In this document: positions 40,476 through 57,875 of the stretch, in pieces
Numbering within the stretch: position 1 is the first letter of the stretch
Layout: each line of letters starts with the position of its first letter
Source of the DNA: Gemmatimonadota bacterium
Lineage (GTDB): Bacteria; Gemmatimonadota; Gemmatimonadetes; Palauibacterales; KS3-K002
Direction of reading: 5' to 3'
DNA length: 64,000 nt
NCBI GenBank assembly: GCA_039586795.1
Contig: JBDHJS010000003.1
Span: 32,001 to 96,000 of the forward strand
Program-made: the position numbers and the translations under genes
Notes under the pieces: generated by a model
Databases searched by the model: none
What the model was told of the DNA's origin: nothing
Seen by the model: only the letters and a program-made list of their open reading frames with translations

Positions 40476-40578
40476 ACACAGACTCACGGCAAAGGTGGTA
40501 TTCACTCGCGGACTCCAGGCGCCCGCGACGCTCAAGATAACCCTAACAATCCGGGATGCAGCAAGCCCGATACTCCGT

Positions 40579-40594
40579 AGCAAGCACGATGCCG
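40579..40594 (-). promoter_or_regulatory. sigma54 -24/-12 promoter of wzc copy 2
   Basis: Minus strand CGGCATCGTGCTTGCT. Confidence 0.75.
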
Positions 40595-40692
40595 GGCGCG
40601 CGGCGAAGCGAGAGATCTCTTTCCAACAACAAGGTTCTACCGGCAGCCGACGCGGTGGGCCGGGCAGCGTTGTATATTTCGCAGACCTGCTA

Positions 40693-40710
40693 TGTAGCGA
40701 GGCTGCTACA
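40693..40710. promoter_or_regulatory. Perfect enhancer-type palindrome
   Basis: TGTAGC-GAGGCT-GCTACA, 99 bp upstream of the -24 element. Confidence 0.7.
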
Positions 40711-40973
40711 GCACTTCAGGCGACTTGAAGGCGATTGTGGTATTGGGCCAACAGGGCTGGGCCAGGTGGTCCGCCTCGCTGGCCCGTCAGAAGGCCGGAA
40801 CGCAAGTGATGGGTTGAGAACCCCAAGCCTTCCGGCCCCTAACCGCCCGGGCGGTGGGGTTCAAATGTTCCGGCCTGATCCCTGCAAGATCCAATTGAGT
40901 CACGATAATACCCGCCGCGGCCACTGCCTCCGGAGACGAGGCAGCCAGTGGAAAACACCGTGGAGGCTTGTTG

Positions 40974-42521
40974 ATGTCCAGTTCCCTGTCCGGCACAAAC
41001 AGCGGCGATGGAGACGTGCTAACGCCAGCCCCCGCTGGCCTTTCATCTGAGGAAGGTACGCGCGGTACCGAATCGGTGATCCCGCTGAGGATCCTGATTG
41101 CGGATGACGACCGTACGTTGCTCGAGAGCTGCGCGAGTATCTTGGAAATTCAGGGTCACGAGGTGACCTTGTCGGCGCGAGGCCAGGAAGCGCTGGATAT
41201 TCTGCGACGTCGCCGTTTCGACCTGGCGCTGATCGATCTGTACATGCTGGACGTGTCGGGGATGGAGCTATTGCGGGCCAGCCTCAAAGCGAACCCCGAC
41301 CTGATTCCGATCATCATCACGGGCAAGCCAAGCGTGGATTCGAACATGGAGGCGATCCGCGCCGGCGCCTGGGACTATCTTCCGAAGCCATTCTCCGCGA
41401 CACAATTGCAGGTGATGATCGGCCGGGCGGCGCACGCCGTGCTGGGAGCGCGCAAGACGCAGGCTCTCCAGCAGGATATCGAGACGCAGCACGGCCACAG
41501 CGAAAAGGTGAAGGTGCTGGGGATCTCACCCGCGTTCCAGCGGATCGTCGAGGTCTGCCGCCGGGTGGCGCCCACCGATGCCTCAGCTTTTGTCACCGGA
41601 GAAAGCGGGACGGGCAAGGAACTGATCGCCCAGTTCATTCATCACCACAGTCGACGGGCGCGGAAGCCGCTCGTCCCGATCAATTGCGCCGCCTTGCCGG
41701 AGACGCTTCTGGAATCCGAGATGTTCGGACATTGCAAAGGCTCGTTCACGGGTGCGGTGCGGGACAAGCCTGGCCTCCTGGAGATCGCCGACGGCGGCAC
41801 GATGTTCCTGGATGAGATCACCGAGATGTCACAGGCCATTCAGGCGAAGTTGCTGCGGGTAATCCAGGACGGCGTGGTTCGACGAGTCGGCAGCACGAAG
41901 ACGGACGCCGTGGTCAACGTCCGCTTCATCGCCGCGACGAACCGCGACCCGGAGGAAGCCGTCGAATCCGGCACACTCCGCCAGGACCTGTACTTCCGGC
42001 TACGTGTGGTGCCGATACGCGTACCACCGCTGCGGGAGCGGCCCGAGGACGTCCCGATTCTGGCCGAGCACTTCCTGCTGACCTACTGGAAGCGGCACCG
42101 TGAGCGGGGCGCCGAGCCGCCGAAGTTCACCGCCGCCGCCACGCGAGCGCTGCAGGACCGGCAGTGGCCAGGCAACGTCCGCGAGCTGCAGAACGCTATC
42201 GAGCACGCGGTCGTGTTCCTCGAGCCGGGAGCCGATATCAAGGCCGAGGACGTCCCATCCGTTCAGGACAAGGTGCCTGCTCAGGAGGGCTCCCTATTCG
42301 AACTCAATTGGCTCGACGAGCCCTATCACATCGCCCGCGATCGGATGACCGCGGAGTTCGAGCGGCGTTACCTGGTTTGGGTCGTGAACCGAGCGGCCGG
42401 CAACATGTCCAAGGCCGCCCGCATAGCGGGAATCGACAGGACGACGATCTATCGGCTGATGGAGAAGCACGGCCTGCGGCGTGATGCCATGGTCGCGCAG
42501 AACTCTCAAGACACTCCGTGA
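40974..42521 (+). CDS. NtrC-family sigma54 activator (copy 2)
   Basis: [49 protein letters not shown]. Confidence 0.95.
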
Positions 42522-42836
42522 CGCCGACAGGATCGGTTTGATCGTAGCACCACGTTTCTTTTTCGTTGGTGCTGTCGAGTTTTCTTCTTCTTCAAGCAAG
42601 CGCTTTCCTGTAGCACCGTCTCCACAACTAGCAGATGCATTGCTACGTAGCGTGAGTACATCAGTTTCCGGACGGCCCACCTAAGTACTTGTAAATAAAC
42701 AACTTGGATATTGGCACGGAACGGCCCAAACGCGCACAGCCGTTGCACCTGCATGTGAGCGCTTAACCGAAGTACGCCTTGGCTTGCCAACCCGCCGGCG
42801 AGTCAGACCTGAATCACCACACAACGCGGAGTTGGG

Positions 42837-43601
42837 ATGGAGGCATCGACAGTACCCACGCGAGAGCACTATCGCGCTCAGACTAAGCCACTTGCGCTGG
42901 AGAACGGCAACGGATCCGCGGGCGGGTTGAGTGAAGGGTCCACTGCTTCGCATGAGTTGGCTAGCGAGCGTGCTCGACGCATTCTGAATTTGGCGGCCGC
43001 ATTTGTGTTGCTTGTTCTCAGCACTCCGGTCATGATCGTCATCGCGCTGGCGATCAGGCTGACCTCTTCCGGTCCGATCTTCTTCGTTCAGCAGCGCGTT
43101 GGCATCGACCGCCGCAACGGTGGACGGCCAACCGGCAACTGTCGGCGGCAGACGGATGCGGGTGGGCGGCCCTTCAAGATCTACAAGTTTCGCACGATGC
43201 ATTGGAACGGCGGCAACGGTGATCGTCAGGTGTGGGCAAGTCCTGAAGACCCACGCGTCACTCGGTTGGGCCGCGTTCTGCGCACGTACAGGCTGGACGA
43301 GCTACCTCAGCTCATCAACATCCTGCGCGGAGACATGAACCTGGTCGGGCCACGGCCAGAACAGCCCAAGATATTTGACGATCTGCGTTCCAAAGTGACC
43401 GGCTACGAACGGCGCCAAGCTGTGCGACCGGGGATCACGGGGTGGGCGCAGGTCAATCAGCATTACGACCGGTCGGTCGAGGATGTGAAGAAGAAGCTGG
43501 CGCTGGACCTCGAGTACATCGGCAAGCAGTCGGTACGAGAGGACTTGAAGATCATGCTCCGTACGGTGCCGGTAATCCTGTTCAAGGAAGGCGCCTGGTA
43601 A
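42837..43601 (+). CDS. Priming phosphoglycosyltransferase (bacterial sugar transferase)
   Basis: KIYKFRTM, DPRVT.LG..LR.YRLDELPQL.N.L.GDM.LVGPRP, PGITGWAQV. Confidence 0.95.
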   Translation: MEASTVPTREHYRAQTKPLALENGNGSAGGLSEGSTASHELASERARRILNLAAAFVLLVLSTPVMIVIALAIRLTSSGPIFFVQQRVGIDRRNGGRPTGNCRRQTDAGGRPFKIYKFRTMHWNGGNGDRQVWASPEDPRVTRLGRVLRTYRLDELPQLINILRGDMNLVGPRPEQPKIFDDLRSKVTGYERRQAVRPGITGWAQVNQHYDRSVEDVKKKLALDLEYIGKQSVREDLKIMLRTVPVILFKEGAW

Positions 43602-43621
43602 GCGGAGACCCGCCAGGTAGC

Positions 43622-43666
43622 GAACGCCGGTCCCCTCTCACTGCAGAGGGACCGGCGTTCTTCTTT
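43622..43666 (+). terminator. Intrinsic terminator between convergent genes
   Basis: GAACGCCGGTCCC...GGGACCGGCGTTC 13-bp stem followed by TTCTTT. Confidence 0.75.
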
Positions 43667-43721
43667 AGGTAGCTGCTAGACTGGGCAACCGTTAGGTACA
43701 CCCCAACAATCTCGGGTTCCG

Positions 43722-45032
43722 CTAAGGCAACAACGAGGGAAGTTGCCCTGCAGGCGCCACGATGACCGTATACATGCTCACCGGCGGTCCCATATCCTGT
43801 GCAACGTTGCTTCCCAGGGTAACACGCCCTGCTGGGAAGATCGCCAGCAGCACGCTGAAGCCGCCCGTGTCGTCCTTCTCGTTGTAGATGTCCAGTCCGG
43901 TATCCACGAAGCCATCCAGCCAGTCGGGCCGTGGGCTGACGCGGTCGTCATGGGCGACGAAGACCGCGACCTCCTCACCGACGTCGAACGACAGGAAGTT
44001 GCTGGCAGATGGGCTCATATTCTTGTCATCGTTCGCCGTGCGGATATAGGTCACGCCAACGAAACTGGGCGGAATCGTCCGGAATTCACGATTCCGATCG
44101 GTATACTGGTGGACGTTGGACTGTTGCGGGAACAGATCGGTGGCCGCGAGTCCGCCCTGGTCGGCCTGGTAGGATCGGCCGCTCGATGCCGACACGCTCG
44201 ACACCTGGGCCGGGCTGGCCGGCGCCGGCGTCGACAGCCCCACGGAGAAGGCGACGGTATAGTCGCTGTTATTGGTGGTGCCGCCCGAATCGGCACACCG
44301 CACATAGAGCTGATAGGACTGCCCAGTCTGTAGACCGACGATGGGCGTAGCATGTCCCGTCGTGTTGGTCTGCTCGAAGGGGGTCATCTGGCCATAGGAG
44401 GTACCGCTCTGATTGCTCCAGGCGCAGACGGCATTCTCGTCGGTGGCCACGTGGAGCACCGTCTCACTCGTGCCGCTAGCGAGGTCTCCCCGTGGCTGAG
44501 AGTGCACGATGCGTGGTGAGCCCGCCGGGCTCGCCGATGGCAGGAATCCGACCGTGAAACCGACCTCGTAGTCGGTGTCGTTCACGTTTCCGGCGCCATC
44601 GTCACACCTGACATACGCCGAGTAGGCGCCGCCATCTTGAAGTCCACCGTACCGCGCGACGTGTTCCCGGCCTCCGGTACTGGAGAACGGAGTCATCGAC
44701 CCGAAAGCGGTCCCCGCGACATCACTCCAGCCGCACGTCGCGGCCCTGTCAGTCGCAACCGCGATGATAGCCGAGCTAACACCACCAGCCAGCTCCCCGC
44801 TGGGGTAGCCGGCCGATATGACCGGCGCCACGCCCGGGTTGGGTGGCGGCGGTGGCGGCGGTGGTGGTGGAGGCGGCGGCTCGTTCTCACCCTCGTTCTC
44901 CGTAGGGTCTTCCTCGGGCGGATCGTTCCCATCGTCTGGGGGAGCCACTAGATCACCACAGGAGGCGAGGACAAGGGCCATGCTGAAGAGAATACTCCAG
45001 CGAGCCAGTCCTCTGGACTGCTTTCGAGACAT
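43722..45032 (-). CDS. Lipoprotein with poly-Pro linker, two tandem ~95-aa Ig/FN3-like repeats and a C-terminal beta domain
   Basis: Lipobox LASC; a long Pro run; the repeats share VATD..A.C.WS..GT..G.MTPF..T..H....GLQ.G..Y..YVRC.D..G..N..DY.V.F.VG. Confidence 0.82.
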   Translation of the reverse strand: MSRKQSRGLARWSILFSMALVLASCGDLVAPPDDGNDPPEEDPTENEGENEPPPPPPPPPPPPPNPGVAPVISAGYPSGELAGGVSSAIIAVATDRAATCGWSDVAGTAFGSMTPFSSTGGREHVARYGGLQDGGAYSAYVRCDDGAGNVNDTDYEVGFTVGFLPSASPAGSPRIVHSQPRGDLASGTSETVLHVATDENAVCAWSNQSGTSYGQMTPFEQTNTTGHATPIVGLQTGQSYQLYVRCADSGGTTNNSDYTVAFSVGLSTPAPASPAQVSSVSASSGRSYQADQGGLAATDLFPQQSNVHQYTDRNREFRTIPPSFVGVTYIRTANDDKNMSPSASNFLSFDVGEEVAVFVAHDDRVSPRPDWLDGFVDTGLDIYNEKDDTGGFSVLLAIFPAGRVTLGSNVAQDMGPPVSMYTVIVAPAGQLPSLLP

Positions 45033-45194
45033 CCTACTTCACCTCTTCGGGGACTCACGACATGTGGGGTCCGCCGCGCTTGCAGCTTAGACTAACAAAG
45101 CGCGCTACTAGCCGGCGGGTACGCGCCTTGGTCTAAGATGCGTCAAAGCTGCCTTCTTCTCAACCCCGCCGCCTTAGTGGACTCCATCGAGACG

Positions 45195-45210
45195 TGCAAG
45201 CGAGGTGCCG
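45195..45210 (-). promoter_or_regulatory. sigma54 -24/-12 promoter candidate for the lipoprotein gene
   Basis: Minus strand CGGCACCTCGCTTGCA. Confidence 0.6.
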
Positions 45211-45459
45211 CCGCCGCCGAGGGAGGGCCCTGCCAGCTAAATCATTCTAGAACAACAGCTTACGGTCTCCGTGATACGCCGATTGCCCGGTTTTGGCCAG
45301 CGATATGCGGTAGTTCCTGCAGATCCTAGGCAGACTCTGCACACCGGTACGGGACGTGCGACCGAGACATCGTCATGCTGTTCACCGAACCAGTCGTTAT
45401 CTTGGGGCTGGCCACGCCGAGCAGCGGAGGACAGCGAGGCGGGTAACACCGGCGGAGAA

Positions 45460-47121
45460 TTGAACATCTATTTGCGACTCTTGATGGCTCGGCTTTCCCG
45501 CGGCGTTGTGACCCTGGAGCAACGTGGTCGGAAACGTCTGCTACTGGGATCGTCCCTCGTGATCGCCATCGCGGGGCTCGCGTTCTCCTGGTATCCGCTG
45601 CTCGCCGCAGGACTGTTGGTGGCGGCGCCGCTATCGATCAGCTACGCCAGGGACCGCGCATTCAGAACGGTGCGCCTACGAGCGGCGATTCGTCGACACC
45701 GCGATCTCTCCAATCTCGAGCCGGCGAGCCAGGTCCTTTCGAAGATGGGGATAGACGAGCAGCGGATCGACGATCTGCTTCGCCGAGCGAAACTCGAGAC
45801 CGAACTTCCAATCGCCGAGCTGGATCAGAACAATCGTGTAGTGAGCGACGTCGGGCCGATCCCGCTGTTCGAGAATGCGCTGATAGAACGGGACGCGTTT
45901 CAGAAACGGTCGAGGAACAAGGTAGAGATCGTCATCATTTCGAACGTGGTGGCGCTGAAGAAGAGCTATCGGGATTTCACCTCTTTCCGTAATGAGGTGA
46001 TCGCGCTCGATGCACTCAAGCGTCTCGAGCGAGTGCCAAAGATCGTCGCGCTCGATGAACAGCGTCAGTCGTTGTGTCAGAGCTTCGTTCCGGGACCCAA
46101 CCTCGGTACGCTGATGGTGACAAAGGGGGCCAGCGTCAGCAACCAGTATCAGGCGGGGAGGAAGTACCCTGGCATCGACGGCTGGTCGAGGACGCCGCCT
46201 ACCGAAAGCGAGCGTTCATCGGTGCTGCGAGCACAGAGCGAGGTTGTCGACGAAGCCTTCATCGCCGCTCTCCAAAAGTTGTTCGTCGCGGTCCATGCCG
46301 AAGGAGTCGGGATGACCGACGTCAAACACGGCAACGTCATCAGCTACGGTGGACAGCCCTACTTCTGCGATTTCGACTTCGCGCGCGTTCAGCGTAGCAA
46401 TGACATTTCGTTCCTGCTGACGCGGAACAGGGAGCGGGACAAGTTCAATTACCTGTTCAACGGCGACCTGCCCACGAGCTCATCCCTGCAAGCCGCGCTT
46501 GCGCACCTGACAACCCGTAGCACAGGAAGCGAGCTTCCATCCGTCTATTTCGGAGGAGGATACAGTTTCGGCGACCTCGGCGGCGCCAACGATGCGACGG
46601 CGTTGTGGCTGAAGCTCCGGACGGCGTTACTGGGCTCGGTAGGCGCCACCGTCATCGACTTCGGGAGTAGGGGAGGAGTGATCGCCCTTGAACTGCTGCG
46701 CTCCGGCGTAGAGCGTGTCTGCGCGTATGAACCCGATCCTCAACTTCTGACTTTTGCCCGCCTGACTCATCAGTTCTTCGAGTTAGTGGACAATCGCGCC
46801 TACGACTTTCGGTGCGAACCGTTCGACCGCTCCCAGGCACTCGCGCGCGATGCAGGCGGCTACGACACGGCGCTGGCCCTCGACGGACTGAGCGGTAAGC
46901 GTGAGGAGCTCGAGCAGTTGATCGCCTGGCTGAACGAGAACGTGCAGTCGCTGATCATTGGCTGCCCCAATCGAGTCTCGTCGGGCGCCGAGGTGCTGGC
47001 GACTGCTACAGCGGAAGAAGTGCGCGAGCTGCTCGTGGGCTCCAAGTTTTTGCGATCAAAGCAGTTAGCGGTGCCGCGCGGCTCTCTGATCGCGGCTGCC
47101 ACAACCAAATTCAATACCTGA
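45460..47121 (+). CDS. Membrane-anchored kinase-like + SAM methyltransferase-like fusion
   Basis: Two N-terminal TMs; VALKK..E, DVKHGN, FCDFD (protein-kinase-like fold); VIDFGSRGG..AYEPD (class I methyltransferase motif I). Start uncertain (TTG 45460 or ATG 45484). Confidence 0.72.
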   Translation: MNIYLRLLMARLSRGVVTLEQRGRKRLLLGSSLVIAIAGLAFSWYPLLAAGLLVAAPLSISYARDRAFRTVRLRAAIRRHRDLSNLEPASQVLSKMGIDEQRIDDLLRRAKLETELPIAELDQNNRVVSDVGPIPLFENALIERDAFQKRSRNKVEIVIISNVVALKKSYRDFTSFRNEVIALDALKRLERVPKIVALDEQRQSLCQSFVPGPNLGTLMVTKGASVSNQYQAGRKYPGIDGWSRTPPTESERSSVLRAQSEVVDEAFIAALQKLFVAVHAEGVGMTDVKHGNVISYGGQPYFCDFDFARVQRSNDISFLLTRNRERDKFNYLFNGDLPTSSSLQAALAHLTTRSTGSELPSVYFGGGYSFGDLGGANDATALWLKLRTALLGSVGATVIDFGSRGGVIALELLRSGVERVCAYEPDPQLLTFARLTHQFFELVDNRAYDFRCEPFDRSQALARDAGGYDTALALDGLSGKREELEQLIAWLNENVQSLIIGCPNRVSSGAEVLATATAEEVRELLVGSKFLRSKQLAVPRGSLIAAATTKFNT

Positions 47122-47150
47122 TCCAAGCGATCGGAGACGGCCCAGCACCC

Positions 47151-48647
47151 CTATTCGGTGCCCCCGGGCGGTACGTCCTTGAGGAAGGTCTTCCGCAATT
47201 CTTGGCGTTTCGGTTTCCCTGAGGCGGTGCGCGGGATCTCTTCGACTTCGGCTATCTGTCGCGGCCATTTGTAGTCGGGCAGGACATCGCGCAGATGTCT
47301 TCGTACGTCCGCGATTAGTGGAGAGGAGCCCTGACGGAAGCAAGCGATTATCGTTTCGCCCCAGATCTCGTCCGGCACTCCGATGACCACACATTCGTGG
47401 ACCCCGTCCATCGAGATGATGGCTTCCTCGATCTCTTTAGGGTGAACGCGGTAGGCTCCCGTCTTTATCAGGTCGCTTCGCCGACCCGTGATGAAGATGA
47501 ATCCTTCGTCATCGACAGTAGCCAGGTCACCCGTCCACAAGCCTCCATCCCTCAACACCTGCCGACTAGTCTCAGCATCGTCCCAGTAGCCCGACATCAG
47601 GTTCTCGCCGCTGGCGACGATCTCTCCTTCCTGTCCCGGCGTGACCGGCTCTCCACGCTCATCCAGGACCTGAAGCGCTACACCCGGCATGCCTTTGCCA
47701 ATACTGTTGGGTCGGCTCGGGAGCTCGGATGTCGGCAGATAGCTCAATCGAGCCGATGCCTCCGTCTGGCCGTACATCAAAAACACCTCGACGTCAGGCA
47801 GGGCTCGCTGCAAGCGACGCAGATTGGCGGCGGGAAGGGCACCGCCCGCACAGGTGAGATAGCGGAGCGACGGTGCTGGATGCTCATCGAGCTTCCCACG
47901 CTGAAGCAGCATGGCAAAAGTAGACGGAACGCCACTCAACCCCGTACACTCGCGATCGCGCAGTAGCTTAACGACCCGGGCCGGAAACGCCATCGCACCC
48001 AGCAGCGCCATACTACCGCCCACGCGACAGTGCGTTTGCAGAAGCGAGTTGCCGTAGCTGTAGACAAAGTCGAGGACGACGCCCACTCGATCCTCGGACG
48101 TCAAGCTGAGATACTCAACGATCCCGGTGGTGTTCGAACGTAACGCCCGATGGCTGAGCATTACGCCCTTCGGTGTACCTGTAGTTCCGCTCGTGTAGAT
48201 GATCTGGGCGAGCTCCGTCCCACCACCCAGGGGTAGCTCATCGAACGGCGGTTCATTTTCCAGCTCTTCAACGGTCCATGTATGCTCGACACCGATCTCG
48301 GCAAGCGCGGGATAGTCACGCGCTGGATCGGTGATACAGATATTCGGCTGACAATTCTCAACGACGTGAGCCAGAGCGCGCGGCGCAGTGGCCATCGCCA
48401 ATCCAACCGCGGTGCCACCAACCAGCAAGGTGCCGTAGTAGGCGCTGAGGTAGTCGATACCGTTGGGGAGGAGAAAGAGCACGCGATCGGCTGGCTGCAC
48501 ACCCTGTCGCCGAAGTCCGGCGGCAAGGCGCTGCGCTCGCCCCAATACTTCCTGGTAGGTGAAGACCGTCCCTGATTCGTCGATCAAGAAAGGTGCGTCA
48601 GGCGTCCGCTCGGCCCATCCCTTGAGGTCGTCCGCGATGTGCATCAC
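47151..48647 (-). CDS. Class I adenylate-forming (AMP-dependent acyl-ACP/CoA) ligase
   Basis: YTSGTTGTPKG, MYGQTEA, TGDL, GR.SDLIK.G..V.P.EIE, P.TASGK. Confidence 0.95.
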   Translation of the reverse strand: MMHIADDLKGWAERTPDAPFLIDESGTVFTYQEVLGRAQRLAAGLRRQGVQPADRVLFLLPNGIDYLSAYYGTLLVGGTAVGLAMATAPRALAHVVENCQPNICITDPARDYPALAEIGVEHTWTVEELENEPPFDELPLGGGTELAQIIYTSGTTGTPKGVMLSHRALRSNTTGIVEYLSLTSEDRVGVVLDFVYSYGNSLLQTHCRVGGSMALLGAMAFPARVVKLLRDRECTGLSGVPSTFAMLLQRGKLDEHPAPSLRYLTCAGGALPAANLRRLQRALPDVEVFLMYGQTEASARLSYLPTSELPSRPNSIGKGMPGVALQVLDERGEPVTPGQEGEIVASGENLMSGYWDDAETSRQVLRDGGLWTGDLATVDDEGFIFITGRRSDLIKTGAYRVHPKEIEEAIISMDGVHECVVIGVPDEIWGETIIACFRQGSSPLIADVRRHLRDVLPDYKWPRQIAEVEEIPRTASGKPKRQELRKTFLKDVPPGGTE

Positions 48648-49867
48648 GAGTCTTCCGGTGGCCCGAGTTGGCAGGAGGCTGCCGGGAATACGCCTGCCCT
48701 CACATCGACGCCGAACCGCTCCAGAAGTGTACTGACCAGTTCATCCCATCTGCTGAAGTGGGGGTATCCCTCCCAGTGCGTCACCTGGCAATCCGACTCA
48801 CTGATGCCGGGGGCATAGACGTAGAGCGGCGTTTCTCCGAGAAAGGGCTTTGGCGCATTCGCTTCCCGGTGCAACGGCATCCCCCGATCGAACAGACCGT
48901 GATGGCCTCTCCCTCTGTGGCAAGCCGCCATGAGGATTACGGCACCACCCTCGGCCAGGTGCTTCAGACCACCCGTTCGAAGCGGACTGTAAGCGTTCTC
49001 GACCTGGAGGAACTCGCCGTCTTTGGGATAGGCGTTGCAGAACAGGACATCGAAGGTTCCCGTCATCGGAGTGGCGTACGCCTGCCGGGCGCTATCGCAG
49101 GCCAGGCGATGGGCTTCGGTGGGCTCTCCGAAATGGACTTCTCTGATGTACCGCGTCGAATCCACAAGACAAGACACGCCGAAGTGAAGCGGAAGCTCTT
49201 CGGCCACTCTTTCCATCTCGCGCCGAATGCGGTTCCCCTCGGTGGCCCCGATCCCTCCCGCGAACCCCATCATGGCTAGCTTGTGCAGCCACACCAGAGT
49301 GTCGAGCGAAGCGAGGCCGGGGACGACGATCTTGCCGCCGCCCGAGAATCCGGCGAACGGATTCGGAATCACACTGCCAACACCGATCCGAAAGTCGGCT
49401 TCCAGAAATGGGCCGTCGATTCGCAACGGAATCTTGCCGATGCGGATCCCACTGTCTGACAACTCGCCTGCCGCATCGTGAAAACGCACTTCAAATCGCT
49501 CGGCGATCCAATCGCCTATCTTCGCGCGAACCTCATCGGCCCCCGGCCGGCGATGCGCACCCGTGGCCATCACGAGATCGATTTGGGACTTCGGCACACC
49601 CGCGTCGAGTAACCCGGTTACGATGGCCTGCAGCGCCAACCCGAGTGGTGACGGCCGCGTGAGATCGTCGATCGCGATCGAAACTCGCGCTCTCGCGCTC
49701 ACCTGTTCCTGCACCGCCGCTATCAGCTTGGAGTAGTCAGGCGATGACGGCTGCTCCCAGCCGGCCATCTCCAATCGCTCGACTTCCCATTCGGACGGAA
49801 ATGGAAATTCCCGCTGTTCGGGATCTTCGCTCCAGGCGCGCCAGGGCAACGTGAGCGTCTTCGTCAC
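48644..49867 (-). CDS. LarA-superfamily (lactate racemase-like, DUF2088) protein
   Basis: DDLTRP, ATGAHR, FAGFSGGGK.VVPG, NAYPKD, GG.VIL.A.C..G.G.H. Confidence 0.85.
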   Translation of the reverse strand: MTKTLTLPWRAWSEDPEQREFPFPSEWEVERLEMAGWEQPSSPDYSKLIAAVQEQVSARARVSIAIDDLTRPSPLGLALQAIVTGLLDAGVPKSQIDLVMATGAHRRPGADEVRAKIGDWIAERFEVRFHDAAGELSDSGIRIGKIPLRIDGPFLEADFRIGVGSVIPNPFAGFSGGGKIVVPGLASLDTLVWLHKLAMMGFAGGIGATEGNRIRREMERVAEELPLHFGVSCLVDSTRYIREVHFGEPTEAHRLACDSARQAYATPMTGTFDVLFCNAYPKDGEFLQVENAYSPLRTGGLKHLAEGGAVILMAACHRGRGHHGLFDRGMPLHREANAPKPFLGETPLYVYAPGISESDCQVTHWEGYPHFSRWDELVSTLLERFGVDVRAGVFPAASCQLGPPEDS

Positions 49868-49868
49868 G

Positions 49869-50120
49869 TCAGCTGCTTTCTCCGCCCAACTTGCTCTCGA
49901 CGAGTGCGGTGATCGCTACCACCGTCTCGAAGTTGTCAGGCATCATGTCATCGATGGCCACTTCGATTCCGAAGGTAGCCTCCAAAAAGCTGATCAGTTC
50001 CTCCATCCCGAGGCTATCCACGATCCCGCTTTGCAGGAGCATGGTGTCGGGCTGAATGCTCGACTGATCGGGTAAGCCCTTCAACTCAACCAGGTAGGCT
50101 ATGACTTTTTCAGCGATCAC
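49869..50120 (-). CDS. Acyl carrier protein
   Basis: GIVDSLG phosphopantetheinylation motif; LE..FGI.V...D..P.NF.TV (DltC-like). Confidence 0.92.
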   Translation of the reverse strand: MIAEKVIAYLVELKGLPDQSSIQPDTMLLQSGIVDSLGMEELISFLEATFGIEVAIDDMMPDNFETVVAITALVESKLGGESS

Positions 50121-50171
50121 CTTTGTTCTCCACGGCTTTCCTGTTGTCGGTGCACGAATACGCGGGCGGGC

Positions 50172-51212
50172 TTAGACGTCTCGGTCCCCCAACGTCATGT
50201 ACCAGTTCTCCGCGTTCTCTACGGCTGCCTTGCCCCAGAAACCGGCGCCCGCATGGCAGACCGTTGGATGATTTTCGACTCGCTCCCAGAACCCCAGTCG
50301 CCTGAGATCTTCGCTTCGCGGGAAGTGGTTCTGCACCATAACGTCAAGCGCCTGAGATCCAAACTTGTCCGCGAGACGGGCCGCCGCGAGTAACAGCTCC
50401 GGCCCCGCGTTCTCTTCGGGTAAATACGCGAGGTCATGGACTTTCGTTGCCGGGTTCATCAGCCTGAGTACCAGGTAGCCCAACAGAGTCCCGGACGTGT
50501 TACGCGCTTCGAGGATCTTCGCGTTGAAGTCGGGCCGCTCGAAGCATCTCCAGTTCAGATACGCTTCCGTCCTACGGACGATCACCCGATAGCTCTGACC
50601 CAATCTGCGGTCAAGCTCGTCATACTCCGACCCGATGCTATCGACCTCGGCCACTTCTACTCGCCTGCTTCTCACCTGCCGCGCGATGTGACGCGCCCGG
50701 AGCGCGAGATTCGCGACAGGACCGACGACCCGGGCCGCCGCCTTTCCGAACTTTCGCGCTAACAGACCTTGGGCACGCAGTGGGTAGACCCAACGCCTTA
50801 TATCCGACAGCTGCCGGTGGCCCGTCCGCTTGTGAACCGCCAGCATCGCCGGCACCGGATGCGCGTACAGAAACGCATACTCGCCGGCATCCACCGCCTC
50901 CTTCGCCGGCAGCCGCAGCTTCACGGCCGGTCCCAGGGTTCGATGGCCGACTTCGACGCTGAAGTCGCCGCAGTTCAGAGCGCGGCATTCCTTGCCGTCC
51001 ACCCACACTTCGCGCGGATAGCCCGAGGTGAAGCCGACAGAGTCTCCGGACGGCGCCGTCAGAATCCATATCCGGGCCGCGCCTGCCGGGTTCTTGGCAT
51101 ACAGCCACTCGAATCTCTCGCGCTCCGTATCGCCACCGCGAATTCTGCGGTAGAGCTGCATCGCGAGATCGAGGTCCCGGGTTTCCGTCACTTCGTAGGT
51201 CGACGCTTTCAT
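50172..51212 (-). CDS. GNAT-family acyltransferase
   Basis: F.WLY..NP.G, GDFSV...HR..G, R...YLNWR; C-terminal W..T.GD.D. Start at ATG 51212. Confidence 0.8.
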   Translation of the reverse strand: MKASTYEVTETRDLDLAMQLYRRIRGGDTERERFEWLYAKNPAGAARIWILTAPSGDSVGFTSGYPREVWVDGKECRALNCGDFSVEVGHRTLGPAVKLRLPAKEAVDAGEYAFLYAHPVPAMLAVHKRTGHRQLSDIRRWVYPLRAQGLLARKFGKAAARVVGPVANLALRARHIARQVRSRRVEVAEVDSIGSEYDELDRRLGQSYRVIVRRTEAYLNWRCFERPDFNAKILEARNTSGTLLGYLVLRLMNPATKVHDLAYLPEENAGPELLLAAARLADKFGSQALDVMVQNHFPRSEDLRRLGFWERVENHPTVCHAGAGFWGKAAVENAENWYMTLGDRDV

Positions 51213-51360
51213 CTGCAAGCGGCCTGCTATTGCAAGAGCCAGGCTCGGGTCGTGGCGTTTCAGTCTGGTCGGACACACCCTGTTGCGGCGCGGGATTCAC
51301 CAGCTAGCCCGGGCCTACCCAGCCTCGGAACCGGCCAGATCAACGGAAAGTGGGCCGAAC

Positions 51361-51378
51361 TGTTGCGTCTCTGCAACG
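51361..51378. promoter_or_regulatory. Candidate enhancer palindrome in the divergent GNAT/fkbH spacer
   Basis: TGTTGC-GTCTCT-GCAACG. Confidence 0.6.
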
Positions 51379-51557
51379 GTCATGACAAGCTGACGCTCGG
51401 TCTGATCCGCATTCCACCCTGAGAACGGCTAGAAAAGAGGCTGCCGGGCCGAGGCGGGGCGACGGCTTCACGTACAAACTTTGCAGATCGGATACCCGCG
51501 TACGGAACCGTGGGGTGCCGGACGGACCACGCGTCCGGTGGCAGAGATCGAGAGAAG

Positions 51558-53810
51558 GTGACCAAGGTGGAAGCCAATACGGCTGATAGACCGGGCGGCG
51601 ACCTGCCCGAGCTGCTTAGAGAGGCGCTGAACGGGAGCGCTGAGACCGCGGATATAGTGGCGGCGCTGACCGTGCTGGCCCCGTCGTCCGCGGCTGCGTG
51701 GCTGACAGAGAATGAAGAGCACGTACGATCCCAATGGGCGGAGGAGGATCTGAAGCGCGTCATCACCCGGGTGGTGACCGAGTGCACGGAGCGGGGCGGG
51801 AACGCGGAGGCCACTTGCGCCGTCGAGTTGGTCGAGCGCTACGGTGACACAATAGACCCGGATACTGCAGCGGCCGTCGTCTCCACGTTGGATACCGAGG
51901 AGCAAGCCGGAGTCGTTTCGAAGATGACCACGGATGCTCTCAATCGCTGGCCGACTCATCAGGGGCTGCTGCGCCTTGCCGTAGATCAAGCCGTGGAGGC
52001 GAATGATGCGGAGCATGCACACGGCTTGCTGACGCGACTCGCCCACGTGGATGACGGCCAAGCCAACCTGAGCTACGTGTGGCGAAAGCGGAAGGTTTTG
52101 CCGAAGGAAGGATCGCCACCGATCCGAATCGCGCTTCTCAGCTCATTCACGATCGATCCCCTGGCGCACTACCTGGACGCTGAGTGCCGGGCGCTCGGTC
52201 TCGAGCCAGAAGTATACGTCGGTCCGTTCAACTCCTGGACACAAGAAGTCCTGAATCCCGAATCCGGGTTGCGCCGCTTCGAGGCGGAGATCGTTTTTCT
52301 ATCCGTCTCGATCGACGACCTGATCCCCGAGCTTGCGGGCTCGCCGTCGATCGAGCAGCTGGACGAACTGGGACGGACGGCAGTGGAACGCGTGATCTCT
52401 GTATCGCGGCAGTTCACCGCCTGGTCGGATGCGATGCTGGTCGTGCATAGCTTCCATTCCGTCTACGCCGATCCCTACGGTATCGCGAAGGGTCGGAGGG
52501 GGCGCGCGGCGTGGTTGGCGGAGCTCAATGCAGCGATGGCCGAAGAGCTGGCTGGACTCCCGCGCGCGTACATGCTCGACGAAGGTGAGCTGCTACTTCG
52601 ACGAACCGACGGCCCGGCTGACAATCCCAAGATGCGGCACATAGCGGCCCTGCGCTTAACCGGCCCCCTGCTCCGGCAGACCGCCCACGCGTACGCTCAT
52701 TACATCGCTCCGTTCAAGGGACTTTCCCGCAAGTGTGTCGTCCTGGACCTGGACAACACGCTCTGGGGCGGGATAATCGGTGAAGACGGTCTGCACGGCA
52801 TCAAGCTAGGCAACACGGCGCCCGGCTCAGAGTATCAGGAGTTTCAGCGTTATCTTCTCTCGTTGACAGAGCGAGGCTTCCTGCTGGCGGTCAACTCGAA
52901 GAACAACCTTGATGACGCGATAGAGGTATTTCGGTCCCACGAGGGTATGGTATTGCGGGAAGATTCGTTCAGCGCGATGCGCATCAACTGGCGGCCAAAA
53001 CCCGAGAACATCCTGGCGATCGCCGAGGAGCTCAACATAGGGGTCGATTCCCTACTCTTCGTCGACGACAACCCGAACGAACGCGAGCTGATGCGGCAGA
53101 TGGCGCCGGACGTCCTGACTGTTGACCTCCCGGACGATCCATCGCTCTACCGATCGACGTTGGAGGCACTACCTCAGCTTCAGAAGCTGGTCGTCACCGA
53201 TGAAGACAAGACGCGCACAGAGCTATACCAGGCGCGGCGCAAACGCGAAGAGGCGAAAGTCGATGCCGGCTCGCTGGAGGATTATCTGAGATCACTCGAC
53301 ATCGTCGTCGAAATCGGACAGGCGAACGAGTCAACGCTGCCGCGCGTGCATCAGATCTTTGAACGGACGAATCAGTTCAACCTAACGACGCGTCGCTACC
53401 AGGCCGGCGAATTGGCGGCATTTGCATCCGACGCGGTTCACCGATTGTACACGCTTCGAGCGAAGGACCGTTTTGGTGATCACGGGATCGTTGCCACGGC
53501 GTTGGTACGTGCGGACGGGGGTTGCTGGGTGATCGACAGCTTCTTGATGAGCTGTCGCGTGATCGGCTACGGTGTGGAGACGGCCCTCCTGTCCAAGGTG
53601 AGCGAAGACGCGGTGGCTTGCGGCGCGCAGGAGCTGGTCGGCGAGTACATCGAGACGGCGAAGAATGCGCCGGCGCGTGACTTCTACGCGAGACATGAGT
53701 TTAGCGAGCTAGGCACGAAAGACGACGTGCAAAGTTGGAAGGCTACACTAGCAGACAAAGCGATGCCGTGCCCGGACTGGGTGCAGGTGGAGGTTGCAGA
53801 TGACGCCTGA
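51558..53810 (+). CDS. fkbH: FkbH-like HAD-IIIC glyceryl-ACP loading phosphatase with N-terminal extension
   Basis: KCVVLDLDNTLWGG..GEDG, SKN, INW.PK, FVDDNP.ER, RTNQFNLTT, DRFGD.G, FLMSCRV.G. Confidence 0.92.
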   Translation: MTKVEANTADRPGGDLPELLREALNGSAETADIVAALTVLAPSSAAAWLTENEEHVRSQWAEEDLKRVITRVVTECTERGGNAEATCAVELVERYGDTIDPDTAAAVVSTLDTEEQAGVVSKMTTDALNRWPTHQGLLRLAVDQAVEANDAEHAHGLLTRLAHVDDGQANLSYVWRKRKVLPKEGSPPIRIALLSSFTIDPLAHYLDAECRALGLEPEVYVGPFNSWTQEVLNPESGLRRFEAEIVFLSVSIDDLIPELAGSPSIEQLDELGRTAVERVISVSRQFTAWSDAMLVVHSFHSVYADPYGIAKGRRGRAAWLAELNAAMAEELAGLPRAYMLDEGELLLRRTDGPADNPKMRHIAALRLTGPLLRQTAHAYAHYIAPFKGLSRKCVVLDLDNTLWGGIIGEDGLHGIKLGNTAPGSEYQEFQRYLLSLTERGFLLAVNSKNNLDDAIEVFRSHEGMVLREDSFSAMRINWRPKPENILAIAEELNIGVDSLLFVDDNPNERELMRQMAPDVLTVDLPDDPSLYRSTLEALPQLQKLVVTDEDKTRTELYQARRKREEAKVDAGSLEDYLRSLDIVVEIGQANESTLPRVHQIFERTNQFNLTTRRYQAGELAAFASDAVHRLYTLRAKDRFGDHGIVATALVRADGGCWVIDSFLMSCRVIGYGVETALLSKVSEDAVACGAQELVGEYIETAKNAPARDFYARHEFSELGTKDDVQSWKATLADKAMPCPDWVQVEVADDA

Positions 53811-54027
53811 GGATGTGGTGAGCCGGGTATTCGGTGTATCCCGCAACAAGGTAGACGACGACACTTCCAACACCACGTTGCCCGAGTGGGATTCGATGGG
53901 CCACGTGAACCTCATCATCGAGCTCGAGTCCTCATACGGAGTGTCCTTTTCGCCGGACGATGCCCTGCAGATGACCGACGTGGCAGCCATCAAGCGTGCG
54001 CTGCAAAGCCGAGGAGTGTCTTGGTAG
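53800..54027 (+). CDS. Acyl carrier protein
   Basis: WDSMGH..LI.ELE..YG; overlaps the fkbH stop codon. Confidence 0.92.
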   Translation: MTPEDVVSRVFGVSRNKVDDDTSNTTLPEWDSMGHVNLIIELESSYGVSFSPDDALQMTDVAAIKRALQSRGVSW

Positions 54028-55208
54028 CCAACGACACGCGAGCGGCCGATCAGGCGAATAGCGGCGCGTCGACTCAAGTCGTAAAGGTCCAGGATGAACA
54101 CATCGACGTCCTGACCGGGTTTATACGAGAGATTTGGGATTCGAACGCGGACGCTGAGGCCGTACGCAGAGCGCGCAAGGCTGCGGCGGCGCAGAACCCG
54201 GCGGCGGCCGGAGAGCCTCCGCCGACTTTCTTGCTGATATCGTCCGATCGGGCGATCGGACATGTCAGCACCATACCGATCAGGATTTGGGACGGAGAAG
54301 CGCAGCGACCCATTCACTGGGTGAAGGGTCTCATGGTCACTCCGGACCACCGGAACGGACCGGTCGGGTTTCTCCTTCTCAAGGAGGCGGTGCGCGAACT
54401 CGGCGACGGCATGGCCATGGTCGTCGAGCCACCGGCGCGTCGGTTGTTCGAAGCGCTTGGGTATCAGGACGCCGGTGTCTTACCGAATCACATGCGAGTG
54501 CTGAAGCCTGGGCGGTTCCTGAGCCGCATCGATGTTGAAGCGATCGGGCTCGCCGGGCTGCCGTCGTGGACGAACGGCGCCGTTCGTCTTGCGCAGCGAT
54601 CCGGACTCGCACGGTTGCTCGGTATGGCGATCAGTGGAGCCACCGGCGCCTGGACGGCGGTCGCTGGACGGCGGAGCAGCGGACTCCAAAACAAGCCGGT
54701 TCGGCGGATCTCTGAAATCGATTCGTCGGCGATCGATGATCTCTGGGCTCGAGTTCGAAGCCAGCTGCGTGCCGCGGCGGTGCGCGACAGCGCCTACCTC
54801 AACTGGAGATACGACGACAACGCATACCGCCCGGTAGCCGTGTACGCGGAATCCGAGCTGGCCGGGGTCGGGATAGTACGGGCACCGAGTGATGACGGCG
54901 ATCCAAGACTGCGGGGAGTACGCGTGGCCGTGCTGTCCGATCTGCTCTATCCGCCCGACCGACCCGACATTGGGCTCGCCCTGCTGGCCGCCGCGGAGAA
55001 CGCGGGTCGCGAACTGGGGGCCGACGCCTTGCTGATCAGCGTTAGCCATCCGGGCACCCAGAGACTCTTCAAGCGACGTGCATTCCTAAGGATCCCGGGC
55101 AACGTCCACTTCCTCTTCAAAGGCACCCCCGACACTCCGAGCCTGCCTTCGGGCATCGATGAATGGTGGTTGAGTAGGGGGGACAGCAGCGCCGACGAAG
55201 TGTTCTAG
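54021..55208 (+). CDS. GNAT-family acyltransferase
   Basis: GGAG RBS before TTG 54021; LMV.P.HR.G..G, RD..YLNWRY, C-terminal WW...GDS..D. Confidence 0.8.
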   Translation: MVANDTRAADQANSGASTQVVKVQDEHIDVLTGFIREIWDSNADAEAVRRARKAAAAQNPAAAGEPPPTFLLISSDRAIGHVSTIPIRIWDGEAQRPIHWVKGLMVTPDHRNGPVGFLLLKEAVRELGDGMAMVVEPPARRLFEALGYQDAGVLPNHMRVLKPGRFLSRIDVEAIGLAGLPSWTNGAVRLAQRSGLARLLGMAISGATGAWTAVAGRRSSGLQNKPVRRISEIDSSAIDDLWARVRSQLRAAAVRDSAYLNWRYDDNAYRPVAVYAESELAGVGIVRAPSDDGDPRLRGVRVAVLSDLLYPPDRPDIGLALLAAAENAGRELGADALLISVSHPGTQRLFKRRAFLRIPGNVHFLFKGTPDTPSLPSGIDEWWLSRGDSSADEVF

Positions 55209-55237
55209 CGAGATTCGCTACCAAGCTAACCCGCATC

Positions 55238-56398
55238 CTATCGGCGCGTCGGCTCCCAGACAGCCTGCCCTTTACCGGTCACGAGCCGGCTCCAGGCGTG
55301 CAGCACCGCGAAGTTCCCACCTGCGAGATAAGCGGGAAGCGCGAACAACAGGGGGACCGACCTGTCCTTCGGCCACGCCATTCCGAGGACCGCAAGCACG
55401 GCACCAACCACGGCTGCCGTGGCTGCGGCCACCGCCCACCAGTAGCTCATCCCGAGCACGACGAGCGCCGAGAGCCCAATGAGAAGCGCCCAAGGCACGA
55501 GCCAACGGCAGAGCTTGTGCGTGAACAGCATCCAGGCGAACCGCCCGTAACGGAATGGGTTGAGCAGACGCCGCTTGAAGAACAGCGTTCGGAGTCCGCG
55601 AGTGATCGTACGAACCTTACGCGAGTATTCGTGGCGTAGCGATAGCGCCCGCGGCACCAAGCACACCGCATCGGTCACCGACACGGAACGGTAGTCGTGC
55701 TCCCGAGCCCTGAGAGCGGCGGTGAAGTCGCGACTGATGCCGCGGGGCAGCTCGTGTCGGTGCAGGTCGGCACGAATCGCGTAGAAGCACCCGGACGCGC
55801 CAACGATCCCGTACACATCGGTCTCGAGATCACGCAACCACATCTCGAACCCAACGTATCCCGATTCGCCCACGTTGGTGGCGCCGTCGACGCGAGCGAC
55901 ACTCACATCGCGGCCCGAGGCGACACCGATCGTAGGATCGGCAAACGTCGCGATCAGTTTCTTCAGAGCATCGGGCTGGATGCGAATGGTCGCATCCGTG
56001 TTCACGATGATGTCACCCGTCAGGTGCTCGAGCGCAGCCGTCTCAGCGGCGTCTTTCCCACCGCGCTCTTCCATACGCAGGAGCTCGACACCGCGATCGG
56101 CGTACTCCTTCACGATCTCGTCGGTCCCATCGGACGATGCGTCCGAGATAACGAGGATTTGACGAAGTTCGGCCGGGTAGTCCAGCGCCAGCAGACTATC
56201 GAGGGTAGCGCGTATCCTGTCAGCTTCGTTGTAGGCCGCCAGCGTGATGCTGATCGATGGCCACTCGCTCGGGGCATCCGCTTCCGATCGCGCGCTTCGA
56301 AAGCTCGCGAATAGCTTTAACAGAAGCGGGTAGCCGATGTAGGTGTAGGTGACGAAGAGAAACGCCACAGCCAGCGTGACCAAGGCGACCTCGCTCAT
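55238..56398 (-). CDS. Glycosyltransferase family 2
   Basis: AAYNE, SDASSDGT, GK..A, TDA, R.VR..RG; flanking TMs. Confidence 0.93.
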   Translation of the reverse strand: MSEVALVTLAVAFLFVTYTYIGYPLLLKLFASFRSARSEADAPSEWPSISITLAAYNEADRIRATLDSLLALDYPAELRQILVISDASSDGTDEIVKEYADRGVELLRMEERGGKDAAETAALEHLTGDIIVNTDATIRIQPDALKKLIATFADPTIGVASGRDVSVARVDGATNVGESGYVGFEMWLRDLETDVYGIVGASGCFYAIRADLHRHELPRGISRDFTAALRAREHDYRSVSVTDAVCLVPRALSLRHEYSRKVRTITRGLRTLFFKRRLLNPFRYGRFAWMLFTHKLCRWLVPWALLIGLSALVVLGMSYWWAVAAATAAVVGAVLAVLGMAWPKDRSVPLLFALPAYLAGGNFAVLHAWSRLVTGKGQAVWEPTRR

Positions 56399-57516: not shown

Positions 57517-57648
57517 AATTCTTATTGCCCCTGGCCTTCCACCTCGAACCGCCGGTAAGCGTAACAATATACATGCCGGGACTGTCGCGACTTTGGGCTC
57601 GATTCTCGACCGGCTCGCCCCAAATTCGAGGGACTCCTCGTGCTAGCG

Positions 57649-57666
57649 TGTTGCATATTCGCAACG
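57649..57666. promoter_or_regulatory. Candidate enhancer palindrome
   Basis: TGTTGC-ATATTC-GCAACG; a variant sigma54 site CGGCATGTATATTGTT (57563-57578, minus strand) lies about 70 bp away. Confidence 0.6.
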
Positions 57667-57875
57667 ACCGATCTACCCTCCGCCTGTCTTAAGAGCGACG
57701 CCTACGAGCTAGCGATGGGGCAGCGCTGTGGGAGCCGCGGATCGAGCGTAGCCATTTGTGGAAGGGACCGCGACGGTCCCGGTCTTGCACCCCCGCGTAG
57801 CCGTTGGACAGGCGCATGCTATTGCCGAAGGGCATTGCCGCCAGAGCTGACCCACGGCCAACCTGATAAAGCTCG

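Follow-up and report, generated by a model that had tools for sequence, protein, structure and literature searches.

We analyzed a 64,000-nucleotide stretch of the genome of an uncultured Gemmatimonadota bacterium (contig JBDHJS010000003.1, positions 32,001 to 96,000 of the forward strand; hereafter the window) and found four co-oriented minus-strand open reading frames (ORFs) at 47151-51212, encoding an adenylate-forming ligase, a LarA-like protein, an acyl carrier protein (ACP1) and a GNAT-family acyltransferase (GNAT-A). We tentatively read this cassette as a carrier-protein-dependent system for the 2-hydroxyacyl decoration of the exopolysaccharide of its locus, in which an enzyme with the nickel-pincer (NPN) cofactor would set the stereochemistry at C2. 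We regard this reading as quite possible, although somewhat short of probable. An earlier note on the same DNA had placed four co-oriented genes at these coordinates and named them GNAT, ACP, LarA-like and ligase. All four are present in the ORF list of the window, and their names agree with the Pfam matches or, for GNAT-A, with the fold and the homologues.

The four genes are translationally coupled. The stop codon of the LarA-like gene and the start codon of the ligase gene overlap as GTGA, a single base separates the ACP1 stop from the LarA-like start, and 51 bases lie between GNAT-A and ACP1. The longest ORF of GNAT-A extends upstream to a GTG at 51278, with an ATG at 51212. The setting of the cassette is an exopolysaccharide locus, as the earlier note had also supposed: its neighbors in the window comprise a priming sugar-phosphate transferase (Bac_transf), two Wzc-like kinases, Poly_export, a UDP-GlcNAc 2-epimerase, glycosyltransferases (GTs) of families GT2 and GT4, and a sulfotransferase. 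Past the window end, the locus continues with an ABC exporter, a second sulfotransferase, a CE4 deacetylase and an O-antigen-ligase-like protein. The GC content is even throughout the region.

The arrangement is conserved. A profile scan of metagenome contigs, many of them only 2-5 kb long, resulted in 80 loci, which were searched with the window proteins by tblastn. A tree of 77 full-length LarA-like proteins (76 from metagenomes plus that of the window) has a bipartition with support 99/98, which separates 33 rows from the other 44, including the window. Among the 43 loci grouping with the window (the window itself excluded), homologues were found of ACP1 in 29, of the ligase in 18, of GNAT-A in 10 and of Bac_transf in 17; for the 18 loci that span at least 10 kb, the corresponding numbers are 16, 14, 5 and 7. 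None of the four was found in the clade of 33 rows. Five loci of this metabolic clade contain an aminotransferase with an iron-containing alcohol dehydrogenase, a dihydroxy-acid dehydratase with an enolase-superfamily protein, corrinoid proteins, or unrelated genes. The neighborhood survey that the earlier note had proposed thus revealed a conserved synteny (ACP in 29/43 and ligase in 18/43 loci vs 0/33). Of the 29 loci with an ACP1 homologue, 22 have it immediately upstream of, and co-oriented with, the LarA-like gene, and GNAT-A homologues are located upstream of the ACP in 10/43. Since the arrangement recurs in many unrelated metagenome contigs, it is more than chance.

In ten loci of the window group, Pfam predicted Wzy_C, GT4, UDP-GlcNAc 2-epimerase, PglF-like dehydratase, PglD-like acetyltransferases and PIG-L among the neighbors, and a CE4 deacetylase immediately precedes the tandem GNAT in L040 and L061. 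The single-protein scan of genome contigs identified one locus, L011, which is the closest match in the genome collection and encodes the LarA-like protein, the ligase, an FkbH-like protein, a second carrier protein (ACP2) and a second GNAT (GNAT-B) in one co-oriented row, with FkbH directly after the ligase (66%, 68%, 61%, 75% and 51% identity to the window proteins, respectively). No orthologues were found in the 400 other sampled genomes of the phylum, 14 of which carry LarA genes that are only 29-33% identical. Orthologues in the databases come from Gemmatimonadota and candidate division KSB1 metagenome-assembled genomes and have generic names (‘lactate racemase domain-containing protein’, ‘DUF2088’).

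The LarA-like protein matches Lar_N (PF09861) in Pfam at 6.6e-32 (110.8 bits; cut-off 23.3), while its Lar_C domain was undetected by Pfam. A family profile compared with solved structures matched Mar2 (3.5e-63), Isosphaera LarA (1.6e-58) and L. plantarum LarA (2.7e-52). The AlphaFold model (pLDDT 94.1) superposes on full-length LarA structures with TM-scores of 0.77-0.80 over approximately 440 columns and, judged by this model, both domains of the protein are LarA-like. Residues were mapped by HMMER alignments to 5huq, 9eia and 2yjg, taking the published residue roles from PMC12393405, bioRxiv 10.1101/2024.11.28.625916 and PMC11770544. The cofactor ribose/phosphate binders Asp72 and Arg75 of LarA correspond to D68 and R71, the catalytic His108 to H105, Lys184 (the thioamide tether of NPN) to K179, the nickel ligand His200 to H195, and Gln295 to Q288. 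All six residues are invariant in 36 aligned sequences and also in 82 sequences wherever the position is present; His323 of the LarA-like protein is invariant as well. The earlier note had further suggested a search of the genome for larB, larC and larE, and all three were found. In the host genome, which is 97.8% complete, the matches to LarC (399 bits), LarB (283 bits, with a cut-off of 175) and LarE (303 bits, with a cut-off of 150) all exceed their cut-offs and are located on three contigs other than that of the window; the LarA-like gene of the window is the sole Lar_N gene of this genome. The genome with L011 likewise contains LarC and one Lar_N gene.

The ligase encodes an AMP-binding domain (1.7e-75, 254.7 bits) and an AMP-binding_C domain (1.8e-18, 67.7 bits; both Pfam). 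Its best NCBIfam model is the exosortase-A-associated ligase TIGR03098 (316.5 bits, under the cut-off of 592), and its closest solved structures are the adenylation domains of LgrA (linear gramicidin synthetase; 8.9e-68), followed by feruloyl-CoA and malonyl-CoA synthetases. The core motifs YTSGTTGTPKG, YGQTEAS and SGKPKR of the ANL enzymes are kept across 21 ligase orthologues. In amino-acid-activating domains, the Asp of the FDxS motif binds the alpha-amino group. The A4 motif of the ligase reads LDFVYSYGNS, in which this Asp aligns to the Gly or Ser of YSYGNS against both LgrA adenylation domains, and the Asp is absent in 21/21 ligase orthologues adjoining LarA-like genes. Because the A4 Asp is missing, a small substrate other than an amino acid fits the ligase, in keeping with the earlier note. 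The ligase is predicted to transfer the acyl group to the ACP and not to CoA, and the adjacency of the two genes is the basis of this prediction. ACP1 matches PP-binding in Pfam (7.9e-06, 26.5 bits; cut-off 20.8) and, weakly and below cut-off, the DltC model NF003464 (2.7e-08). In 20 orthologues encoded next to LarA-like genes, its residues D35, S36, P61, N63 and F64 do not vary, S36 being the phosphopantetheine serine.

GNAT-A has no family match in Pfam or NCBIfam, even at E-values up to 10, and 13 of 30 aligned homologues match Acetyltransf_1. Its AlphaFold model has a pLDDT of 93.5, and the best Foldseek matches are the tandem-GNAT structures 3n7z, 2hv2 and 2i00 and N-myristoyltransferases (E 2.5e-15, TM-score 0.64-0.66). 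R91, G94 and A96 are invariant in the aligned homologues. It is thus the modeled fold, and not Pfam, that shows GNAT-A to be a tandem GNAT acyltransferase, with the GNAT fold duplicated in the manner of Eis, FemX or NMT-type enzymes.

A second operon (51510-55208), absent from the earlier note, is divergent from the four-gene cassette and encodes an FkbH-like protein, ACP2 and GNAT-B (Table 1). The FkbH-like protein matches the FkbH domain TIGR01686 (2.9e-98, 329 bits; cut-off 146.65) and HAD-IIIC (1.1e-19), with the HAD motif DLDNT at residue 413. A likeness of its first 400 residues to FkbH_N clusters (score 0.91) is treated as a lead only. The gene of ACP2, which has a DSMG motif and a weak similarity to ACP1 (E 3e-05), overlaps the FkbH stop codon. 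GNAT-B matches Acetyltransf_1 (3.2e-07) and most likely starts at TTG 54021, which overlaps the ACP2 stop codon and is preceded by a Shine-Dalgarno-like GAGGAG. GNAT-A and GNAT-B have a linker and an AYLNWR stretch in common, in a central, weakly similar part (E 9e-05). FkbH enzymes, known from the FK520 and oxazolomycin literature, charge a carrier protein with glyceryl that stems from the glycolytic intermediate 1,3-bisphosphoglycerate, with the help of a catalytic Cys, and glyceryl is itself a 2-hydroxyacyl group. FkbH and ACP2 are predicted to supply a 2-hydroxyacyl (glyceryl) carrier-protein thioester without the help of a ligase.

Table 1. Coordinates (positions in the window) of the four-gene cassette, the divergent region and the second operon
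Feature	Position	Strand	Basis or remark
Adenylate-forming ligase, 498 aa, predicted ACP1 loader	47151..48647	-	AMP-binding + AMP-binding_C
LarA-family (DUF2088) protein, 407 aa, single-histidine (Asn169) type	48644..49867	-	Lar_N
Acyl carrier protein ACP1, 83 aa, distinct ‘MP(E/D)NF’ type	49869..50120	-	PP-binding
Tandem-GNAT acyltransferase GNAT-A, 346 aa from ATG 51212	50172..51212	-	Fold + homologues
Divergent intergenic region, 297 bases, GNAT-A start to FkbH start	51213..51509	.	
FkbH-like protein, 766 aa, predicted glyceryl-ACP synthase/phosphatase	51510..53810	+	TIGR01686
Second carrier protein ACP2, 77 aa	53794..54027	+	PP-binding just below cut-off
Second GNAT-family acyltransferase GNAT-B, ~395 aa from TTG 54021	54021..55208	+	Acetyltransf_1; longest ORF from 53886

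Parts of this organization recur separately in the phylum, where a GNAT-A profile has relatives in 35 of 401 genomes. Two other genomes (L122 and L123) have the order FkbH, ACP2-like ORF and tandem GNAT. A further locus (L121:3711-9539, genome G307) encodes an asparagine-synthase-like protein, an AMP-ligase that is 34% identical to the window ligase, an ACP1-like ORF, an NAD-synthase-like PP-loop enzyme and a tandem GNAT, while LarA is missing. From this locus, ligase-ACP-X-GNAT cassettes would seem to form a family in which the middle enzyme can be exchanged: since the NAD-synthase-like enzyme stands in the stead of LarA, the enzyme between ACP and GNAT appears to be an exchangeable tailoring or supply enzyme.

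In the mechanism that we propose, the substrate of the ligase would be a small carboxylic acid without an amino group, most likely a 2-hydroxy acid, which the ligase would adenylate and load on ACP1. GNAT-A would then move the acyl group from ACP1 to the amino group of a sugar, an amine possibly freed by the CE4 deacetylase of the same locus. The LarA-like enzyme, with the NPN cofactor made by LarB, LarC and LarE, would fix the C2 configuration of the acid, and would most likely do so on the free acid before loading, comparable to alanine racemase for DltA/DltC. FkbH, ACP2 and GNAT-B would form a second, parallel module that adds a glycolysis-derived glyceryl group to the polymer. The general scheme would be modular, with a loader (FkbH, or a ligase plus an exchangeable enzyme), a dedicated ACP and a tandem GNAT for transfer to the glycan. 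We favor action on the free acid because hydride chemistry is needed for carboxylates and not for thioesters. Simple base catalysis fails on a free 2-hydroxy acid because the alpha-hydrogen of its carboxylate form is not acidic enough. LarA enzymes use hydride transfer for this reason, so that an NPN enzyme would be most needed for a free acid. Goffin is said to have reported in 2005 that the LarA of L. plantarum provides D-lactate for cell-wall synthesis. Action on the free acid is also favored because every LarA homologue (LarAH) characterized so far acts on free acids, among them glycerate and 2,4-dihydroxybutyrate (PMC11770544 and PMC7583248).

Several results weigh against this reading. 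The NCBIfam equivalogs of the LarA family are missed widely (malate racemase 168 bits against a cut-off of 500, LarA 159.1 bits against 460), and the PP-binding match of ACP2 (1.4e-3, 19.2 bits) is just below the cut-off of 20.8. The presence of larB, larC and larE is only permissive evidence, because larC is far more common in the phylum than LarA-like genes: larC (PF01969) occurs in 229 of 401 sampled genomes (a count that takes in G000 and the unpublished genome G156) and LarA-like genes (E up to 1e-20) in 15 of 401. Most producers of the NPN cofactor in the phylum must do without a LarA homologue and must employ the cofactor in other proteins; PMC13524815 introduced a new NPN-dependent family in 2026. 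Since the middle enzyme is exchangeable, the cassette as such does not fix the role of the LarA-like protein. In addition, the long, polysaccharide-linked loci L053 and L055 have no ACP or ligase within approximately 9 kb as searched by tblastn. Finally, the second catalytic histidine of LarA, His174, is replaced by Asn169 in the window protein. With this replacement, which the window protein has in common with its five closest relatives, the symmetric two-base racemization known for LarA is unexpected, and on this point the interpretation of the earlier note is not supported. Gatreddi et al. (2025, PMC12393405) treat an equivalent difficulty in a different subfamily.

Loci such as L053 and L055 would be expected if the LarA-like enzyme served the polysaccharide pathway apart from the ACP module, e.g., by epimerizing a sugar acid or a 2-hydroxy-acid building block, with the ligase, ACP and GNAT adding an unrelated acyl group. 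Such an independent role also agrees with one subclade in which the LarA-like gene is located between GT4 and the priming sugar-phosphate transferase, with the presence of Bac_transf near 17/43 loci, and with the gluconate 2-epimerases listed among LarA homologues in PMC11770544. However, 16 of the 18 loci with 10 kb or more contain an ACP, mostly directly adjacent, the window genes are translationally coupled, and four loci of the Bac_transf subclade itself (L058, L065, L074 and L094) still contain both ACP and ligase. We consider this explanation very unlikely.

The replacement of His174 delimits a small clade. Asn occupies the position in the window, in L011 and in L027-L030 (6/6), whereas His is found in the other 76 loci, and Asn169 is kept in 10/10 aligned database homologues of at least 50% identity. 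Seven further positions (48, 151, 226, 236, 242, 286 and 327, including D151, R242 and D327) are fixed in this Asn clade (10 sequences) in a way that differs from at least 80% of 26 His-type relatives. The ligases of the Asn and His clades also differ systematically in several core motifs, which fits the possibility that the two clades load different acids. As a candidate for a relocated second histidine we considered His317 (in ‘AACH’), which was rejected since L029 and L030 have Thr at this position and P0014 has Tyr.

Two published LarA homologues, LarASp and LarABw (Gatreddi et al., 2025, PMC12393405; PDB 9q2u, 9q3j and 9q3k), are also of the Asn type. This paper describes them as octamers of proteins of about 500 aa with Asn at the His174 position and Lys for Arg75, without lactate racemase activity, encoded in carbohydrate contexts next to glycolytic and sugar-transport genes. 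They share with the window protein the Asn, the retained cofactor binders and the carbohydrate-related neighborhood. Nevertheless, they are distant (profile E-values of 8e-23 and 1.4e-21, compared to 3.5e-63 for Mar2; TM-scores of 0.65-0.69), and no ACP or ligase is among the neighbors described there. Because the sister clade of the window protein is His-type, the Asn arose here independently of LarASp and LarABw.

One explanation that takes the clade-specific changes at face value is that the Asn-type enzyme is no epimerase, but employs NPN and a single histidine for another hidden-redox reaction that makes the loaded acyl unit, such as an isomerization or a hydride shuttle between two substrates, acting on an acid or on glycerate/glyceryl. 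The conservation of Asn169 (10/10 close homologues, 6/6 loci), the seven additional substitutions, the divergent ligase motifs with the different acid they suggest, and the lack of lactate racemase activity in the published Asn-type proteins (PMC12393405) all agree with such a reaction. On the other hand, His-type sisters occur in the same cassette, for which a shared reaction type is the simplest assumption, the equivalents of Gln295, Arg75 and His108 are kept, and the sequences hold no positive evidence for an alternative chemistry. A reaction of this kind therefore appears distinctly unlikely to us.

The FkbH gene follows the same division. It is present in 3/3 Asn-clade loci whose sequence extends over 4 kb past the cassette, namely the window, L011 and L027 (with the FkbH N-terminus at the contig end), and was not found by tblastn in 38 His-type loci outside the 33-row clade. 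Because of this distribution, the loss of the second base is suggested to be linked to an enantiopure, FkbH-derived substrate. As a separate observation, the ligase gene of L027 is set apart from the FkbH start by two genes without a counterpart in the window, one for an ATP-grasp enzyme and one for a PGA_cap (CapA-like) protein (L027:11673-14313).

The distribution of FkbH is relevant to a third explanation, in which the LarA-like enzyme inverts C2 of a 2-hydroxyacyl-S-ACP, either the acid loaded on ACP1 by the ligase or the D-glyceryl group from FkbH, and not a free acid. In the Asn clade, FkbH would deliver only one enantiomer, so that one general base could suffice to drive the reaction in one direction until the product is taken away by the GNAT. 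The gene order is suggestive, with the ACP immediately preceding a co-oriented LarA-like gene in 22/29 loci and, in the window, the 1-base gap and the overlap with the ligase; in addition, the change from His to Asn is confined to the clade where FkbH occurs. The LarA-like protein furthermore has Asn in place of Lys298, which is a carboxylate binder in LarA (bioRxiv 10.1101/2024.11.28.625916). Tyr294, which together with Gln295 and Lys298 makes up the carboxylate and 2-OH binders of LarA, is Leu here. The changes of Lys298 and Tyr294 are, however, also common in the metabolic 33-row clade, and we rejected the loss of Lys298 as a marker for thioester substrates, as most of that clade has an equal substitution. 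Moreover, plain acid/base chemistry can epimerize thioesters, for which NPN would be needless. No ACP-LarA or LarA-ligase fusion was found among the 120 near-length matches listed, none of which is as long as ACP plus LarA, nor, as weak evidence, in a search for longer proteins (0/8000 scored candidates at E 1e-20). All characterized LarAHs use free acids (PMC7583248 and PMC11770544). Epimerization on the carrier is thus unlikely in our view.

The specific form of it in which the single-histidine variant inverts D-glyceryl-S-ACP delivered by FkbH, with the GNAT pulling the reaction by moving the L-product to the sugar, we would call rather unlikely. If true, this would be the first nickel-pincer enzyme acting on a carrier-protein-bound substrate. 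The Asn-type LarA enzymes, so far unexplained, would thereby gain a rationale, and glycan tailoring would be extended by on-carrier stereo-editing through hydride transfer. We continue to prefer that C2 is set on the free acid prior to loading, as part of the decoration cassette. The data show what the genes encode, their coupling and synteny, the kept cofactor residues and the presence of larB, larC and larE, whereas we infer the identity of the acid and of the acceptor, the N-acylation, the order of the steps and the C2 inversion by a single-histidine enzyme.

The cassette resembles several known systems in part. With the LarAHs L. plantarum LarA, Mar2 and Isosphaera pallida LarA, the window protein shares Lar_N, the two-domain fold, the cofactor residues, one catalytic His, Gln295 and the larBCE genes, whereas it differs by the Asn in place of the second catalytic His, by the changed Lys298 and Tyr294, by its scores below the equivalog cut-offs, and by its location in a polysaccharide/ACP cassette and not among genes of acid metabolism. 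The D-alanylation system with DltA and DltC is similar in its stand-alone adenylating enzyme, its dedicated small carrier, its surface polymer and its stereo-inverting supplier (alanine racemase). In contrast to this system, transfer is predicted here to occur via a cytoplasmic tandem GNAT, the ligase has no amino-binding Asp, and the stereo-enzyme is of the NPN and not of the pyridoxal phosphate (PLP) type. Neither DltB (MBOAT) nor DltD was found among the window ORFs scanned with Pfam, no genome-wide search having been made. The FkbH-like protein corresponds to FkbH/OzmB-type glyceryl-ACP formation in its FkbH domain and HAD motif, followed by an ACP and an acyltransferase, an order also present in L011, L122 and L123. 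It differs from these systems in that no methoxymalonyl-ACP genes (FkbG/I/K types) were seen and in its pairing with a ligase-ACP-LarA module.

Exopolysaccharide loci of the XrtA/PEP-CTERM type combine a ligase with an ACP and a PLP decarboxylase. The window resembles them in the best NCBIfam model of the ligase (TIGR03098) and in the locus regulators, the chain-length determinant and the glycosyltransferases, whose best or near-best matches are to XrtA-system families. All these matches are nevertheless below the family cut-offs, and the described set has no LarA. Another comparison is offered by the tetronate genes of V. cholerae O1 (VC0248-VC0252, wbeK-O), which presumably include an ACP-like protein. 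This dedicated gene set N-acylates perosamine, an amino sugar of the glycan, with a 2-hydroxy acid and encodes WbeL with an ATP-binding domain (PMC3441752). The likeness is one of description, and no LarA homologue is reported there. An FkbH-domain gene is also known from the flagellar glycosylation locus of Campylobacter jejuni (PMC7099621).

Other genes of the locus may contribute to the same polymer. A second acyl-handling set is located 12 kb downstream of the cassette (62523-64000 and beyond, L108:523-3754) and consists of a FabG-like short-chain dehydrogenase/reductase (SDR; 236 aa) to which a GT4 and a short AMP-binding ligase are coupled; this ligase (446 aa) reaches beyond the window end. 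This set may supply a further substituent of the 3-hydroxyacyl type. Convergent to the ligase, a 616-aa protein (45271-47121, plus strand) has faint kinase-like and methyltransferase-like matches (E 0.001-0.01) and a homologue with 45% identity at the equivalent place in L028; it may belong to the acylation system. The polysaccharide is probably sulfated, since the locus contains two Sulfotransfer_3 genes (57876-58781 and L108:7216-8214). Upstream of the polysaccharide locus, the window encodes a full-length bacterial serpin (22732-23961, minus strand, 4.3e-112) and an angiotensin-converting-enzyme-like Peptidase_M2 protein (4822-6618, plus strand, 6.8e-97).

We found no Rfam match at E-values up to 0.1 in 40000-60000. 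Scans for sigma-70 promoters and terminators gave results at chance level, and nothing stands out in the divergent region (51213-51509). The sigma-54 consensus has 26 matches in the window, where 22.9 would be expected; two of them, both of low quality, are close to the divergent region. RNA contigs from three libraries and two studies match pieces of the ligase, GNAT-A, FkbH and GNAT-B genes with 0-2 differences, and pieces with equally few differences (0-2) bridge the LarA/ligase and FkbH/ACP2 junctions; the contigs do not define transcript boundaries. As DNA carry-over is possible, they hint only weakly at transcription of the locus in nature.

The components of the proposed system are known singly: LarA homologues, ANL ligases with stand-alone carriers, loading by FkbH, transfer by GNATs and N-acylation of glycans with 2-hydroxy acids. 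The earlier note knew of no LarA homologue working in an ACP-dependent pathway, and our search of the available literature likewise found no link of the LarA family to an ACP, a ligase and polysaccharide genes. The main texts of two surveys of the LarA superfamily do not mention acyl carrier, polysaccharide, ligase or glycosyl, although their supplements could list such contexts. To our knowledge, the LarA homologues known are all soluble enzymes of central or fermentative metabolism that racemize or epimerize free 2-hydroxy acids, and many of them have no known physiological role. The present analysis ties a whole branch of the family to surface-polysaccharide synthesis, usually with a dedicated carrier and ligase, and thereby gives it a concrete, testable role, in which the defined partners (ligase, ACP and FkbH) narrow the substrate search far beyond the contexts published so far. 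It also points to a second, independent origin of the single-histidine (Asn) LarA type. The cassettes would share a modular logic of glycan acylation with a loader, an ACP and a tandem GNAT, and may explain at the level of genes how bacterial glycans acquire hydroxy-acyl substituents of defined stereochemistry.

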